This document shows, in pieces, positions 14,153 through 21,368 of a stretch of 64,000 nt of DNA (positions are counted from its first letter, which is position 1; each line of letters begins with the position of its first letter). The DNA is taken from positions 23,861 to 87,860 of IMG/VR virus record IMGVR_UViG_3300045988_128837. One strand, written 5' to 3'. The translations under genes and the position numbers were made by a program. The DNA is from a virus. A model generated the notes under the pieces. That model was not told where the DNA came from. It saw only the letters and a program-made list of their open reading frames with translations, and did not search any database.

Positions 14153-14695
14153 TTATAATCTGGAAAATGTTGTTGATCGCATTCTTTTAATCTTTTGTTG
14201 TATCGCTTGAAATGATGTGCCAAACATTTTTGCGATTTCTTGATATGTATAACCTTTTGATTTTAAATCAACAATCATTCTGTCCTTATTATTTAGTGTG
14301 TAACATTTATCTTGAAAATTCAACTTGAAAATAATATTTTTTTCAAAATTTTCTTCATCCTTTAAAAGAAATGAATTTTCATTTTTGTCTTCATCCCAAT
14401 CATCTAACATATGATTATATGAAATAGTATTCATATCGCCCTTTCTTCTCTGCCGAAATCTGTATTTGTTATATACCGTTATTTCATTTTGTATACATAA
14501 ATACGCATATGTCGAAAATGATTTAGACCGTGTTTCATCATAATCAATTGCTGCCTTACACAACCCAATAGCAGCGAATCCATAATAGTCATCAAAATTT
14601 TGTCTGCGGATACCGCATTTTGTCATAGCAGAGTAAATCAAATTATGATTTTGTTCTACCAATTTTCTCTGTTCGTCATTTAATTTCAACGACAT
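14153..14695 (-). CDS. Phage-encoded sigma-70 family sigma factor (regions 2 and 4 only; ECF/TcdR-like).
   Basis: Region 2: LIYSAMTKCG...DDYYGFAAIGLCKAAIDYD...FSTYAYLCIQNEI. Region 4 HTH: GYTYQEIAKMFGTSFQAIQQKIKRM. Paralog of 20787-21368. Confidence 0.6.
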   Translation of the reverse strand: MSLKLNDEQRKLVEQNHNLIYSAMTKCGIRRQNFDDYYGFAAIGLCKAAIDYDETRSKSFSTYAYLCIQNEITVYNKYRFRQRRKGDMNTISYNHMLDDWDEDKNENSFLLKDEENFEKNIIFKLNFQDKCYTLNNKDRMIVDLKSKGYTYQEIAKMFGTSFQAIQQKIKRMRSTTFSRL

Positions 14696-14724
14696 TTTCT
14701 CCTTTATTTACTTGTGTTTATGTG

Positions 14725-15000
14725 TTAATCATGAACAAATGGTTCCCATTCTCTGGGTGGAGCATTTAGCTTCCAATATTTCGGTAATGAAACTCTTACC
14801 CTGCAACCTCTAACTACATTATAAAAATCACAATTTAAGCAATTCTCATAATCGACACTTCTACTTCCCATATCATGAACTCTGTTTGCCTTACAGATAT
14901 TTTGAACTACGCTTAAAGCATCATATATCTCATCAGGTGTATACTCTTTATAATTTTTCTCGCTCACAATATCACCTCCTACTTCTTGAATGCTCGCCAT
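14725..15000 (-). CDS. Small Cys-rich protein, tandem paralog of 14979-15278.
   Basis: YTPDEIYDALSVVQNICKA aligns with HTPKEILNALHVIQDTCEY in the neighbouring ORF. Cys pairs CLNCDF...C. Confidence 0.4.
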   Translation of the reverse strand: MASIQEVGGDIVSEKNYKEYTPDEIYDALSVVQNICKANRVHDMGSRSVDYENCLNCDFYNVVRGCRVRVSLPKYWKLNAPPREWEPFVHD

Positions 15001-15278
15001 ATAGTATCTGGATCATCATCAATTTCCCAATTACAAGGGTCAAGGTCTCTAGGTGTACAAGTCGGGGCTTCGCCCATCATCGTGCATAAAGGACAGGCTT
15101 TACAATCTTCGTCTGCTCCATCAAGATGGTATTCGCACGTATCCTGAATCACATGCAGTGCATTTAAAATTTCTTTTGGCGTATGTAATTTACTTTTCTT
15201 TTCTTTCTCCATTATATTTCTCCTTAATTGTATCAATTGCAAACTGCAACGCCTCATCTTGAATTGTTGTATAATCAT
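14979..15278 (-). CDS. Small Cys-rich protein (CKACPLC ... C), tandem paralog.
   Basis: See 14725-15000. Confidence 0.4.
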   Translation of the reverse strand: MIIQQFKMRRCSLQLIQLRRNIMEKEKKSKLHTPKEILNALHVIQDTCEYHLDGADEDCKACPLCTMMGEAPTCTPRDLDPCNWEIDDDPDTIWRAFKK

Positions 15279-15699
15279 TTATGGAAATCATATCATTTAA
15301 TACATGGATGTACTGTGCCGCATTGGTTTTAGTAGATAGTAGCTTTTCGGAATCTCGATTCTCTATATCATTCACAGTCAATGTATCGCACGCATTAAGA
15401 CACGAATCCACCAATTCGTTCCATAACGACAAAACAAAATATCTCGCTGCAATCGGATGACGTTTTAGTTCATCAACTAGCGGTTTCGTCAGTTGAAACG
15501 TATCAAGAAAACTACATATATTATAATATTTTCGAAGTATATGATCTTGCTTATTTGATGATTCAACCTCGCCTATTGAAAGTGCTAAACTATTTCTTAA
15601 TTCTTCTAACTGCCCGTATGTAAATACTTTATTATTTTCTTTTTTCACTCTGTCTTTCCCATTCCTTTCTCCAATAATCATCTTCTTTGATATTGCCAA
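15190..15699 (-). CDS. Hypothetical protein.
   Basis: Minus-strand ORF within an operon-like array. Confidence 0.35.
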   Translation of the reverse strand: MAISKKMIIGERNGKDRVKKENNKVFTYGQLEELRNSLALSIGEVESSNKQDHILRKYYNICSFLDTFQLTKPLVDELKRHPIAARYFVLSLWNELVDSCLNACDTLTVNDIENRDSEKLLSTKTNAAQYIHVLNDMISINDYTTIQDEALQFAIDTIKEKYNGERKEK

Positions 15700-16273
15700 G
15701 TTTCACATATTGATCTGGTTTAATTTCTCCTAAATCAATCATATCAGAACCATAAACAGATAACATCTGCCACGCCAAATCTTCATCATTATAAATAATC
15801 AAATATACGTCTTCGTCATCATCAACCAATTGTACAACATCATATTCAAATTCATTTTCTCTGCCAGTTGATTGACAAATGGTATCTTCTTTTACTTGAC
15901 ACCCATACATACCACTATGGTCTGCTGGTTCACATCTTGGGAATAATAACCATCCTTTACCGATGTATGTCCCAGTAATCCACTTATTAGTATCATAATT
16001 CTGTGCCTTGCAGTATATACCACAATTTTGATAGGTTTGATTCATTGCTAAATTCCCCTTTCGCTCTTTTGTAATCCGATATACTCTGTCCATAGCTTCC
16101 ATGTTATGATCATGTACCTCTGGAATAAAAATTTCCCTTCCACAAATCTTACAAATACCATATGTCTCTGCAAACGAAATTCTTTCACCTATCATTGGAA
16201 CAATTGTAAACCTTGTTTCAAGTTCATAATCAACTAGCTTTCGACAATATGCGCACAAAAGTTTCTTCTCCAT
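15632..16273 (-). CDS. Hypothetical protein with two CxxC pairs (zinc-ribbon-like).
   Basis: CAYCRK...CKICGRE. Confidence 0.35.
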   Translation of the reverse strand: MEKKLLCAYCRKLVDYELETRFTIVPMIGERISFAETYGICKICGREIFIPEVHDHNMEAMDRVYRITKERKGNLAMNQTYQNCGIYCKAQNYDTNKWITGTYIGKGWLLFPRCEPADHSGMYGCQVKEDTICQSTGRENEFEYDVVQLVDDDEDVYLIIYNDEDLAWQMLSVYGSDMIDLGEIKPDQYVKLGNIKEDDYWRKEWERQSEKRK

Positions 16274-19684: not shown

Positions 19685-19937
19685 CTACCTTCTTATTAAA
19701 TGTCTCTTGTAAATTTAACCATAACCGCCCATCGTCAGCGAACCCATAATGATCTGCCATTGCTTTTGCAAATTCTTTTGTAACACTTTGTGATCCGTTA
19801 ATCAGCCCTTGCACATAATCAACATCCATGCCGATTTTACTCGCAAGCTGATAAGGAGTTATCCTGCAAGATTCAACAAATTCTTCTAAGCATTCGCCAG
19901 GATGAAAAGCAATTTCGTCTCCAATCTTTACATACAT
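19668..19937 (-). CDS. HigA-like XRE-family HTH protein.
   Basis: HPGECLEEF...ITPYQLASKIGMDVDYVQGLINGSQSVTKEFAKAMADHYG matches the HigA antidote pattern. Confidence 0.5.
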   Translation of the reverse strand: MYVKIGDEIAFHPGECLEEFVESCRITPYQLASKIGMDVDYVQGLINGSQSVTKEFAKAMADHYGFADDGRLWLNLQETFNKKVDDRNV

Positions 19938-19939
19938 TT

Positions 19940-20773
19940 TTACACCATTCCTCTCACAATTCGTTCATTTGTTGTCATCAAGAAATTATTGATACGACCC
20001 CAATCTGGTTCGTCTGGTAAATCAGTATTCATATAATCATAATCAAATTGATAAAGTAATCCTTCAATAAAAACATCGTATGATTGATTTGGGAAATATT
20101 CTGTATGCTCATTGTGTTTGCCAAATCTATATGTTTTATGCGTACTATTGTATCCTTCTTTGATCTTTACAAGATCTTTTCCTATGTCGTCCATAGATCC
20201 TAACATTGTTCCGTTATGTAATAATTCAATGCCCTGTAACAATAATCGAACTGCATGCATCATTGATTTATTAGCGTATCGTTCTGCCTTTTGCTTTTCT
20301 TTCTCTGAATCTTTATTTTTATAATACTTAAAACTCGTTCGAGTCAGACAATCACAAATATATCCTTTATATGCATGATAAACTCTCTTAGATAAGAACA
20401 TATCTCTATTTTTGATCAACTCCATACCAATATCGGATACATACAAATAACGGTCTGGCGCAAAATATAACAGCTCTAAAAACGTAGGATTACCCTTAGC
20501 AAGCATGTTGATCATCTTAATATGCGAATATAGCACAGCATCAACGTCTTTACGATCATCGGTCTTCTCAAGATTGTTTTGATTATTGTTCAACAAAATC
20601 TCTCTTTTATCACTAAGGAAAACACCACGTAAATCAATGTCAGAATCCTCTGTATTTGTTCCGTAGGCATAACTTCCACCTAACGTTAGAAAAGCGATTT
20701 TGTGCGGATAATCTCGCAAAAAGTCATACTCTGTAGACGAGTTTATGTAATCCTTTACTTCTTCAATTGTCAT
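19940..20773 (-). CDS. Pol-beta superfamily nucleotidyltransferase (RlaP/PF10127-like). Start taken at the internal MTIEEV to avoid overlap with the sigma gene.
   Basis: NTase motif GGSYAYGTNTEDSDIDLRGVF. Downstream KGNPTFLELLY. Confidence 0.5.
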   Translation of the reverse strand: MTIEEVKDYINSSTEYDFLRDYPHKIAFLTLGGSYAYGTNTEDSDIDLRGVFLSDKREILLNNNQNNLEKTDDRKDVDAVLYSHIKMINMLAKGNPTFLELLYFAPDRYLYVSDIGMELIKNRDMFLSKRVYHAYKGYICDCLTRTSFKYYKNKDSEKEKQKAERYANKSMMHAVRLLLQGIELLHNGTMLGSMDDIGKDLVKIKEGYNSTHKTYRFGKHNEHTEYFPNQSYDVFIEGLLYQFDYDYMNTDLPDEPDWGRINNFLMTTNERIVRGMV

Positions 20774-20786
20774 GATCTCACCTCTT

Positions 20787-21368
20787 TTATCCACATAATG
20801 CTTTCTTAAACTGTACAATATTTTGACTAACCCACTGGTGAGTGATTCCAAGCTGACTTGCAATTTGTCTTTGTGTTAAACCTTTTTGCTTTAACGTGAT
20901 AATCTTTTTATTTCTCGGTGCCAATTTATCAAACTCATTTTGAAAATGTACCTTTGTAAGCACCTCATCCTCTACATTATCTTTACTCATCAGTGTTGTT
21001 CCGATTGTAATATCATCTTCTGGTTCGTATCCTGCCAATGGCGTATCTAACGATTCGGCATTTCTATTCATTTTTTCTGTTGGTCTATACCATTTTGTAT
21101 AATACTGATTTATTTCTGTTTGCAATACCCACCGAAAGAAAGTACCAAAAGCTCCTTTAGACTCGTCCCATTTTAATGCCGCTTTGCAAATCGCCATACG
21201 ACCAAGATCCATATATGTATCAAAATCTGTAAACTTTGTAAAATATTCTTCGTGCAAATGCCAAATTAAAGAATAATTATCTTCAATCAGCTTTCGCTGT
21301 TCATCATTTAGTTTCTTCACATTTCTTAGCCTCCTGTTCTTTAATGAATTTCTCCATATGTTGTACAA
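20787..21368 (-). CDS. Second phage-encoded sigma-70 family sigma factor.
   Basis: LNDEQRKLIEDNYSLIWHL parallels LNDEQRKLVEQNHNLIYSA in the first sigma. Region 2: DLGRMAICKAALKWDESKG. Region 4: GLTQRQIASQLGITHQWVSQNI. Confidence 0.55.
   Translation of the reverse strand: MYNIWRNSLKNRRLRNVKKLNDEQRKLIEDNYSLIWHLHEEYFTKFTDFDTYMDLGRMAICKAALKWDESKGAFGTFFRWVLQTEINQYYTKWYRPTEKMNRNAESLDTPLAGYEPEDDITIGTTLMSKDNVEDEVLTKVHFQNEFDKLAPRNKKIITLKQKGLTQRQIASQLGITHQWVSQNIVQFKKALCG

Follow-up and report, generated by a model that had tools for sequence, protein, structure and literature searches.

Two sigma genes within an early gene cluster

The window analysed here, a 64-kb stretch of the ~166-kb genome of a gut Clostridia phage related to SPβ, carries two genes for sigma-70-family proteins, both on the minus strand and both assigned to phrog_351. 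The first, sigma 1 (14153..14695), closes its transcription unit and encodes 180 aa, comprising a σ2 domain (approximately residues 6-85), an acidic disordered linker and a σ4 domain (approximately residues 114-175). Its paralogue, sigma 2 (20787..21320), is followed by an RlaP-type nucleotidyltransferase gene and then a small HTH gene. Both open reading frames lie where the initial annotation had placed them, at 14153-14695 and 20787-21368 on the minus strand. The 193 aa that it gave for sigma 2 reflect the longest frame, which extends to a TTG at 21368. Translation most likely starts instead at the GTG at 21320, giving 177 aa, because an AGGAGG ribosome-binding site lies 9 nt upstream of that codon and all database homologues of sigma 2 are 177 aa long.

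The two proteins share 32% identity across 167 aa (BLASTP, E 2e-27), and the similarity spans their full length. The shared N-terminal segment LNDEQRKL(V/I)E-N pointed out earlier is real; as KLNDEQRKL(V/I)E-N it is near-invariant across all family members, of which there are over 140, and the most conserved part of the family is this N-terminal, predicted core-binding segment. Sigma 1 and sigma 2 have different recognition helices. A profile built from 142 sequences found no third paralogue in the window.

An early/middle cluster, over 80 kb long and oriented in one direction throughout, holds both genes in its middle; it begins with ArdA and continues, downstream of the sigmas, with replication, ligase and NrdD genes. 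Directly upstream of sigma 1 are two small Cys-rich genes (14725..15278, minus strand; 91 and 99 aa), which match no known family and are syntenic in relatives. Downstream of sigma 1, beyond a conserved 210-bp spacer (13943..14152, minus strand), lies an SPβ-type replication module (869..13942, minus strand) that opens with a yorF-like gene and also holds genes for an AAA_24/Sak4-like protein, a DnaB-like helicase, a primase, a RecJ-like exonuclease, a DnaE-type polymerase and a RecD-like helicase. The SPβ backbone is recognisable from the precomputed Pfam matches of orthologues on related contigs (YorF, YorH, DNA_pol3_alpha and PcfJ), together with a YonO-type polymerase. The transcription unit that holds both sigma genes probably starts at a near-consensus σA promoter (TTGACA-17-TGgTATATT; 29891..29919, minus strand), which stands back-to-back with a Cro/C1-type HTH gene on the plus strand (29938-30204). 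The large intergenic gaps at 24.4 and 14.0 kb contain weak σA signals or none.

Fold and family of the two sigmas

Several lines of evidence place both proteins in the sigma-70 family. The superfamily model TIGR02937 (NCBIfam; cut-off 42.9) recognises sigma 1 at 63.8 bits and sigma 2 at 55.6 bits. Among the Pfam models, Sigma70_r2 matches sigma 1 at 35.5 bits (cut-off 24) and r4_2 falls just short (23.1 bits vs 25.7), while for sigma 2 the region 2 model stays under threshold at 13.8 bits and Sigma70_r4 scores exactly at its cut-off (24.1 bits). A profile of the sigma family matches the solved structures of SigF, SigB, SigA, SigH and SigK, and its best two-domain matches are to the group-3 sigmas SigF (6e-20), SigB (1e-18) and SigH (1e-16). 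The alignment to SigF passes over SigF residues ~104-157, which correspond to σ3. AlphaFold models of the two proteins (pLDDT 81 and 84) each show two four-helix domains, with a pLDDT of ~90 in σ4 and a disordered linker of ~25-30 residues in the place of σ3. When these models were compared with solved structures by Foldseek, all top matches for both proteins were sigma factors, led by B. subtilis SigH. A σ2 domain (regions 2.1-2.4) is recognisable in sigma 1 from Pfam and in sigma 2 from TIGR02937, the profile, whose region 2 aligns to that of SigF and SigA, and the σ2-like four-helix models; a σ4 helix-turn-helix (regions 4.1-4.2) is recognisable in both from alignment to the σ4 of SigF and SigB and from the models. 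Both proteins consist of σ2 and σ4 only, with neither σ3 nor σ1.1. Sequence comparison and structural modelling together establish their fold, their sigma-70 membership and their paralogy, and the original description of two paralogous, minimal phage-encoded sigmas holds in BLASTP, domain models, profile, AlphaFold and Foldseek alike. They are best explained as genuine predicted initiation factors of a phage-specific clade, phrog_351, that has lost σ1.1 and σ3.

The more specific assignment in the initial annotation, to group 4/5 in the style of TcdR, UviA or SPO1 gp28, was not supported by comparison. Group-5 sigmas (TcdR/BotR/TetR/UviA) are similar in length to this pair, and both kinds occur on clostridial mobile elements. 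The TcdR/BotR profile comparison that had been proposed, run by hhalign against TetR/BotR of pE88, aligned 52 σ4 columns only (probability 89%), leaving σ2 unaligned. TIGR03209, the BotR model, scores 253 bits on TetR and is absent from the 25 NCBIfam matches listed for either sigma. ECF (group 4) sigmas share with the pair a σ2-linker-σ4 layout and a length of ~180 aa, and the ECF family PF07638 remains below threshold (17.8 bits vs 21.1). No ECF sigma is among the 60 top-ranking sequence hits with a solved structure; the closest sequence relatives in the ECF test were group 3 and region 2 of SigA. Comparison of neighbouring genes with known families revealed no recognisable anti-sigma gene adjoining either sigma gene. 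SPO1 was not returned when both proteins were searched by tblastn against 50,697 phage records at E thresholds of 1e-5 and 1e-3, and no homology to its gp28 or gp34 was detectable there.

In sequence, the pair is nearest to the group-3 sigmas (SigF/B, SigH and SigE/K), and its two-domain layout is ECF-like. The best specific family matches are to SigB/F/G, SigK/E and SigH, and region 2.3-2.4 ('FSTYAYLCIQNEI') resembles SigE/K-type sequence. Neither protein is an orthologue of the sporulation sigmas SigF/G/E/K, since their scores of 40-50 bits fall far short of every equivalog cut-off (230-460) and both lack σ3. By sequence, both are group-3-derived sigmas from which σ3 has been lost, and neither is of the ECF or TcdR type.

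Sigma 1 alleles, promoters and hairpins

Both sigma genes are present in 29 of 31 related viral contigs (IMG/VR loci), and sigma 2 is 92-100% conserved across the 31. The arrangement of the pair is kept in the related loci L002-L006 and recurs in L067, a metagenome-assembled genome from a distant member of the Clostridia. Where relatives have a single sigma, the lone gene lies upstream of the YorF module, and in other Clostridia genomes family members are found among DnaB, primase and DnaE genes. The position in the core early/replication region is the same in temperate-like and virulent relatives.

Sigma 1 occurs as discrete alleles, at least four of them in natural populations. These have a common N-terminus, the predicted core-binding part, up to an invariant 'CKAA' motif and beyond it exchange the whole promoter-recognition half of the protein, that is, regions 2.3-2.4, the linker and σ4. 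Neither the downstream spacer nor the type of replication module is linked to this exchange: the two main alleles occur with both module types in all four combinations, and mosaic breakpoints lie at both ends of the spacer. Since variation in this spacer, ahead of the replication genes, does not follow the sigma 1 allele, there is no sequence evidence for sigma 1 driving the replication module. The gene for the 91-aa Cys-rich protein also undergoes allele exchange, independently of the sigma 1 allele.

Polymorphism in the promoter-recognition half might be expected of a host-interaction gene, and the sigmas might mimic SigF/G/E/K or SigH and reprogramme host physiology (for example, dormancy) rather than act on phage genes. 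The top specific family matches named above fit such a role, many of the Clostridia that harbour the family are spore-formers, and phage homologues of SigF/G change sporulation in B. subtilis. The sub-equivalog scores, the missing σ3 and the conserved place in the core early/replication region, common to temperate-like relatives and virulent ones, speak against it, and we regard host-directed action as distinctly unlikely.

Over the 82-kb early region, k-mer, ungapped-block and bipartite enumeration recovered no cognate non-σA promoter motif; the search for over-represented bipartite motifs suggested with the initial annotation yielded σA-type promoters and A-rich leaders and nothing else. Ahead of the late genes, likewise, no cognate motif emerged, and no σA-type promoter exceeded chance. 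A missing cognate promoter in the early region is what would be anticipated if the N-terminal σ2.1-2.2 merely occupied core polymerase, the proteins being σA competitors, shut-off factors or plain HTH regulators; the strong conservation of the core-binding segment and the free exchange of the rest of sigma 1 would also agree. Against such non-initiating roles, both paralogues and all alleles retain, with high model confidence, regions 2.3-2.4 together with a full σ4 helix-turn-helix, and the exchanged alleles are intact sigma halves rather than degenerate ones. We therefore consider these roles very unlikely.

The only promoter-like box in the 210-bp spacer is a weak σA-like TTGGCA-16-TAAATT. 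The spacer also encodes a hairpin (14017..14045, minus strand) with a 9-bp stem and a conserved 7-nt loop, UUGGCAG; its stem varies among relatives with pairing kept in all. Approximately five UUGGCAG hairpins are found at gene-block boundaries, and none precedes the late genes. Directly after the sigma 1 stop codon, a second, weak hairpin is followed by a U-run (14116..14160, minus strand) and is possibly a modest intrinsic terminator. In four relatives its folding energy is -6 to -7 kcal/mol and its z-score no more extreme than -0.7 to -2.3, and a strict terminator scan passed it over; its stem sequence is replaced along with the sigma 1 allele. It may be that sigma 1 is a specificity subunit swapped as a cassette and that the UUGGCAG hairpins are the real block-wise transcription signals, a combination that we rate as a long shot. 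In a programme with three polymerase forms, the hairpins could act in a nut-like manner or as hairpin-promoter elements.

A proposed three-tier transcription programme and its known counterparts

A gene for a YonO-type single-subunit RNA polymerase is present on the same contigs, including the contig that bears sigma 2. The catalytic DFDSD motif of its product aligns with the DFDYD of a Spbetavirus YonO. The gene immediately precedes the terminase/portal operon and shares its strand, an arrangement found also in SPβ; the late operon is syntenic. The place of the polymerase gene beside the late operon and the conserved position of the sigma genes in the early/middle cluster are both directly observed. 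The SPβ late operon is transcribed by YonO, which alone is needed for 37 late genes (PMC5467207). By analogy, the phage-encoded YonO-like polymerase probably handles the late genes here, and its position directly upstream of the terminase/portal operon makes a 'late sigma' role unlikely. The middle/late cascade first proposed is weakened accordingly in its late part, while the middle role stays favoured.

A cascade of the SPO1 type would assign one sigma to middle genes and the other to the late structural and lysis genes, both via the host core polymerase. Two sigma genes per genome, an uncommon state seen in ~1-2% of phage genomes, are the SPO1 pattern; the late genes have no σA-type promoter above chance ahead of them; and the promoter used by YonO-type enzymes is undescribed (PMC5467207). 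Opposed to this are the YonO-type gene with its aligned catalytic triad, which immediately precedes the late operon on the same contigs and in the same orientation, the match with SPβ, where YonO alone is needed for the late genes (PMC5467207), and the lone sigma gene of single-sigma relatives, which adjoins replication rather than late genes. An SPO1-style division of labour is, in our judgement, unlikely, though it is the strongest of the competing explanations.

We lean, with modest conviction, toward a programme in which host core polymerase is redirected to phage middle genes and a separate phage polymerase serves the late genes. Early on, the host σA holoenzyme would transcribe both sigma genes, starting at the promoter flanked by the repressor gene near 29.9 kb. 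Sigma 1 and sigma 2 would then displace σA on the host core enzyme and switch it to delayed-early/middle promoters that serve the blocks for replication, nucleotide metabolism and further accessory functions, and perhaps the yonO-like operon too, after which the YonO-like enzyme would transcribe the structural and lysis operon as in SPβ. The order of control would run from σA to the phage sigmas to the phage polymerase. Sigma 1 and sigma 2 differ at the positions predicted to contact the -10 and -35 elements, so each probably acts on a promoter set of its own.

The sigmas might instead confer specificity on the phage's own YonO-like polymerase, or might recognise the UUGGCAG hairpins as structured signals in place of -35/-10 boxes. 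A point against this is that the domains missing from YonO include surfaces that sigma factors bind. In its favour, a need of YonO for accessory factors is left open in PMC5467207, genes of both kinds, sigma and YonO-like, are found together in this lineage and in the Enterocloster phages, and a conserved hairpin separates sigma 1 from the replication genes. SPβ, however, has an active YonO, and tblastn detected no homologue of these sigmas for it in the 50,697-record phage collection, which should include SPβ; YonO lacks most conserved domains of multi-subunit polymerases (Forrest et al., PMC5467207); and the hairpins are missing ahead of late genes. Such factors are highly improbable.

Phage sigma factors are a classic device for gene timing, and the basic finding is unsurprising. 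What is added is a corrected family assignment, from ECF/TcdR-type to group-3-derived with σ3 lost, and the pairing, in an abundant human-gut SPβ-like lineage, of two predicted host-polymerase sigmas with a YonO-type single-subunit polymerase. Together these would make up a three-tier programme of a kind that SPβ itself is not known to have. The half-swapping alleles of sigma 1 and the boundary hairpins offer testable handles on the transcriptional layout of large gut phages. Should the alleles direct the host polymerase towards distinct regulons of phage or host, or let the phage evade an anti-sigma defence of a host or prophage, they would represent a population-level 'promoter-specificity polymorphism' undescribed for phage sigmas.

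SPβ and this lineage share YorF, YorH, a DnaE-type polymerase, PcfJ and repeated operator-bearing promoters; a MrpR-like gene in relatives and the YonO-like polymerase adjoining the late operon add to the likeness. At ~166 kb, this lineage is larger than SPβ, and relatives of its sigmas occur in gut Clostridia genomes. With no SPβ homologue detected and no phage-encoded sigma described in a review of SPβ, an SPβ-type programme does not strictly need a sigma. The nearest cultured relatives of sigma 1, at 33-35% identity, are in Enterocloster phage PMBT24 and the CB457/CB473 phages. These are remote kin, virulent and ~100 kb in size, in which the sigma 1 homologue is labelled hypothetical; a YonO-like 'RNA-dependent RNA polymerase' is encoded there as well, as is a 'SigK' within the replication module, which in PMBT24 sits between exonuclease V and polymerase. 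Compared with group-3 sigmas of Firmicutes (SigF/SigG/SigB, SigE/SigK and SigH) and the homologues of these in phages (Schwartz et al. 2022), this pair stands beside replication genes and not where an auxiliary gene would. In SPO1, gp28 and gp34 (with gp33) are small sigma-70 proteins, two per genome as in this phage; gp28 and gp34 displace host σA on Gram-positive core polymerase (PMC13401047) and direct middle and late transcription. Unlike that of SPO1, the late operon here lies behind a YonO-type polymerase gene, and a late sigma is probably unneeded.

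Two paralogous sigma factors with regions 2 and 4

Both sigma genes lie on the minus strand of the window, like most of its ORFs of 100 aa or more (70 of 79). Sigma 1 (14153-14695, minus strand) encodes 180 aa from an ATG start. Sigma 2 (20787-21320, minus strand) most likely encodes 177 aa, the length shared by all database homologues, from a GTG at 21320 that an AGGAGG box precedes by 9 nt; an alternative reading from a TTG at 21368 gives 193 aa. Of the 180-193 aa given in the initial annotation, 180 aa holds for sigma 1; for sigma 2 the shorter product is preferred. The two ORFs and their shared N-terminal motif, also described there, are present on this strand: pairwise identity is 32% across 167 aligned residues (E 2e-27), and the two proteins have in common an N-terminal KLNDEQRKL(V/I)E-N, the most conserved segment across the family. 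Pairwise, two-sequence and 142-homologue profile searches of the window found no third paralogue. At the DNA level, the 5ʹ ends of the two genes (14635-14698 and 21258-21320) are approximately 78% identical over 64 nt, a similarity that came from a cross-match between the sigma 2 gene of three related loci (L002-L004) and the window's sigma 1 gene; the two genes could recombine through these ends.

Sequence profiles and predicted structures identify both proteins as sigma factors. Sigma 1 (63.8 bits) and sigma 2 (55.6 bits) pass the NCBIfam sigma-70 superfamily model (cut-off 42.9), and both are taken in by phrog_351, "RNA polymerase sigma factor"; the separate Pfam sigma domains score at or near threshold. 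Against solved structures, the family profile matches SigF (6e-20) and Staphylococcus aureus SigB (1e-18), as well as SigA region 2, SigH and SigK. Its alignment to SigF covers σ2 and σ4 and skips SigF residues ~104-157, which correspond to σ3. AlphaFold models (pLDDT 81 and 84) consist of two four-helix domains separated by a low-confidence acidic linker of ~25-30 residues, and in Foldseek sigma factors make up all top matches, with Bacillus subtilis SigH ranking first. Profiles, models and structural matches agree with the original assignment of sigma-70 regions 2 and 4 alone.

The architecture of the pair is ECF-like, consisting of σ2 and σ4 only, and its sequence affinity is with group-3 sigmas. 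The ECF Pfam model scores below threshold, and no ECF sigma is among the best sequence matches to solved structures. The narrower labels proposed at first fare less well. Comparison of the family profile with TetR/BotR of pE88 aligns 52 columns of σ4 and does not extend to σ2, which speaks against a TcdR/UviA-type label; a likeness to SPO1 gp28 likewise finds no support, as tblastn of a phage collection with both sigmas does not retrieve SPO1. The two proteins are ancient paralogues; their clade of phage sigmas descends from group-3 sigmas, with loss of σ3.

The early cluster of an SPβ-like phage

Searches among annotated phages found no close relative, only distant matches to ~100-kb Enterocloster phages. 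Near-identical genes on metagenomic contigs led to recognition of the phage as SPβ-like, and IMG/VR holds dozens of contigs from its lineage, converging on ~166 kb, of which ~30 are near-complete at 140-169 kb. When both window ends are extended, the genes form one unidirectional cluster of more than 80 kb that opens with ArdA behind a divergent control region, passes through the window genes and goes on to ligase, methyltransferase, SNF2 and NrdD. The sigma pair lies within this cluster of early/middle genes, in a gut phage that is both SPβ-like and abundant. A PcfJ gene is located between the two sigma genes, and downstream of sigma 1 lie replication genes that match YorF, an AAA_24/Sak4-like protein, YorH, DnaB, primase, a RecJ-like exonuclease and a DnaE-type polymerase. 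The unit holding both sigma genes probably starts from a near-consensus σA promoter (29919-29891) that adjoins a Cro/C1-type HTH gene in back-to-back orientation.

Both sigmas are present at five related loci (L002-L006). Of 31 IMG/VR loci that have a close sigma 2, 29 also have sigma 1, at a distance of 3.8-7.1 kb downstream. The order of a sigma pair and then YorF, Sak4-like, DnaB and primase genes recurs in a distant Clostridia MAG; in more distant SPβ-like phages the YorF module is preceded by just one sigma gene. Single sigmas belong to the sigma-2 clade at L007, L008 and in an IMG/VR group of ~130 kb, and to the sigma-1 clade at L009. Family members with 32-39% identity occur in genomes of Butyribacter, Roseburia, Clostridium, Lachnospiraceae, Ruminococcus and Acutalibacteraceae, and some Clostridia members are placed among DnaB, primase and DnaE genes; species-representative genomes contain only such distant members and no close prophage copy. 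In the PMBT24 paper, a "SigK" gene is annotated between exonuclease V and polymerase. Together, the paired and single-sigma layouts make the SPβ-type replication module a recurrent neighbour of the sigma family.

Several repeated and mobile elements accompany these genes. A repeat of ~51 nt occurs on the minus strand at 42158-42208 and 829-879 and on related contigs at L010:~5752-5800 and L035:9230-9283; it comprises an extended -10 σA promoter whose TTGACA box lies inside the palindrome TTGCACC…GGTGCAA. The repeat precedes ArdA, yonO-arm genes, a PemK/MazF-like gene and a 3D-domain gene, and by analogy with the repeated elements of SPβ it suggests a common operator for one master repressor. 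Long AT-rich palindromes with the common core 'CACAATATATAGT' (minus strand) lie at 30394-30452, just upstream of a tRNA-like gene near the Cro-like switch, and at 18591-18648, between the two sigma genes and ahead of PcfJ; an operator function is possible, as is termination without a U-run. The tRNA-like gene (30245-30382, minus strand) matches Rfam tRNA at 46.4 bits, with an 81-nt stretch replacing the anticodon arm (insert ~66 nt). ARAGORN calls no tRNA there, and the gene may be an intron-containing or disrupted tRNA.

An IS110-family transposase (DEDD_Tnp_IS110 and Transposase_20; 43025-44311, minus strand) has non-coding flanks at 42582-43024 (443 nt, GC-richer) and 44312-44441. In IS110 elements, flanks of this kind encode a guide ("bridge") RNA, which makes 42582-43024 a candidate bridge RNA site; Rfam at gathering thresholds returned nothing in the flank. 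Two tyrosine-recombinase-like genes of the early cluster (40620-41648 and 45185-46135, minus strand) may encode MrpR-type repressors rather than integrases; an MrpR-like gene is seen in relatives, and at L007 an MrpR_C_cat gene sits between the sigma gene and yorF. A weak radical-SAM-like protein (33142-34104, minus strand) is encoded ~1 kb downstream of the gene for a 689-aa protein (35070-37139, minus strand), with two small ORFs between them. The latter protein belongs to the widespread phrog_1735, a family of unknown function that Vi1-like and phiCbK-like phages share, and was on this ground rejected as a YonO candidate; its identity to counterparts in Vi1-like, phiCbK-like and Bacillus phages is 40-57%. 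In addition, a LAGLIDADG gene lies just upstream of the polymerase gene at L003 and L004, and NrdD (L013) carries an annotated intein-type domain.

Promoters, hairpins and sigma 1 alleles

The initial annotation expected cognate promoters with non-σA motifs. Four unbiased approaches (k-mers, ungapped shared blocks, spacer sub-motifs, and bipartite pentamer/hexamer enumeration), applied to the window and an 82-kb composite, found no such motif. Their output was limited to extended -10 promoters of σA type, A-rich leaders and one operator-bearing promoter repeat; the ungapped shared blocks were no more than about twofold above the shuffled background. The 210-bp spacer between sigma 1 and the yorF-like gene (13943-14152) is ~95% conserved, has mosaic breakpoints on both sides and contains only a weak σA-like box, TTGGCA-16-TAAATT. 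Directly after sigma 1 there is only a weak hairpin with a U-run, not a strong intrinsic terminator. At one related locus, an HNH endonuclease gene is inserted in this spacer (L006:10926-12185), leaving two intact halves.

The spacer's TTGGCAG was rejected as a -35 box: it is not enriched overall (10 matches versus 5.5 expected), its spacing to -10-like boxes is inconsistent, and it sits in hairpin loops. A σ54-type element was also dismissed, as the GG-N10-GC spacing is absent, judged by eye. In the spacer, TTGGCAG forms the 7-nt loop of a 9-bp hairpin (14017-14045, minus strand). UUGGCAG loops also cap minus-strand hairpins at 54136-54164, 40179-40207 and 135-163 (loops at 54153, 40196 and 152) and one upstream of ArdA (L010:4933-4961), with a weak copy at L035:10862-10890; their stems are unrelated and span 4-10 bp. 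Each lies between genes on the transcribed strand, at a boundary of gene blocks; in about five of eight, the hairpin is followed after 19-33 nt by an A-rich block, 'ACACAAAYTAAAA…AACTAAACAA', that precedes the ribosome-binding site. In these sites, which were chosen for stems, 86.7% of hairpin cells are paired, compared with 49% after shuffling (0 of 500 shuffles reach the observed value) and 30-50% with a slid partner; at random positions, a stem of at least 4 bp occurs in 2.6%. Covariation is strong, and pairing is kept in all stem variants of orthologous hairpins, several times via G·U, which suggests an RNA element. A covariance model retrieved one weak site beyond the training sites, and no copy ahead of late genes or in distant relatives. 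The hairpin may act as a nut-like element, bind a protein or mark a point of processing.

Across contigs, sigma 2 is 92-100% identical, whereas sigma 1 is polymorphic in the phage population, with discrete alleles (14153-14695 compared with L123-L152) at ~96-100%, ~62-64%, 53% and 73% identity. The 62% allele is identical to that of the window through residue ~54 (regions 2.1-2.2) and then diverges in regions 2.3-2.4, the linker and σ4. The alleles have residues 1-54 in common and swap the promoter-recognition half. The junction falls at the family-invariant "CKAA" motif, the same place at which a sigma2-N/sigma1-C chimera (P0006, on a 1.2-kb contig) is joined. An allele-grouped, gapped alignment of the spacer revealed no allele-specific column apart from a terminator-like hairpin in the swapped cassette; without such co-variation, the sequences give no sign of an allele-specific promoter there that sigma 1 would read. 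Both replication-module types occur with both main alleles. A small upstream gene was discarded as an anti-sigma partner because it does not co-vary with the allele. A host-directed role of the sigmas and a role other than initiation are possible but less likely; the recurrent placement beside phage replication genes speaks against the first, and the retention of regions 2.3-2.4 and σ4 against the second.

A YonO-type polymerase and a probable division of transcription

Beyond the divergent control region, outside the window and in the same phage lineage, a gene at L035:13432-16326 (contig IMGVR_UViG_3300029861_000362) encodes a 964-aa protein with no Pfam match. The protein matches the "RNA-dependent RNA polymerase" of Enterocloster and Thomasclavelia phages and a 924-aa protein of Spbetavirus BUCT082, whose SDFDYD aligns with its CDFDSD. 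The BUCT082 gene lies two genes upstream of an HU-family gene, a position that resembles the yonO-yonN arrangement of SPβ. From the polymerase matches, the aligned DFDSD and the position by the HU gene, the 964-aa protein is identified at the sequence level as a YonO-type single-subunit RNA polymerase. Downstream on the same strand are a tRNA cluster, a β-CASP nuclease, an exonuclease, a small phrog_379 DNA-binding protein, the large terminase and portal. The same contig, 166,770 bp long, also carries sigma 2.

In SPβ, 37 late genes are transcribed by YonO as one operon (PMC5467207); a search of newer literature on YonO promoters found nothing. By synteny, the late genes of the window's phage are most likely YonO-dependent. 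The initial annotation had read the two sigmas as a middle/late cascade, and an SPO1-style late role of one sigma is possible but less likely; the late part of that reading is undercut by the YonO-type gene upstream of terminase and portal, in synteny with SPβ. On balance, we lean slightly toward a division in which the sigmas would redirect host core polymerase to phage middle genes and late genes would be left to the YonO-type polymerase.

Captured SigF/G/E/K-type genes have been described in phages by Schwartz et al. The pair in the window differs from those phage sigmas: its scores with the sporulation-sigma equivalogs, 40-50 bits against cut-offs of 230-460, rule out captured SigF/G/E/K genes. 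A two-sigma pair is a kind of element already known; what stands out here is its combination with YonO and the polymorphism of the specificity half of sigma 1.
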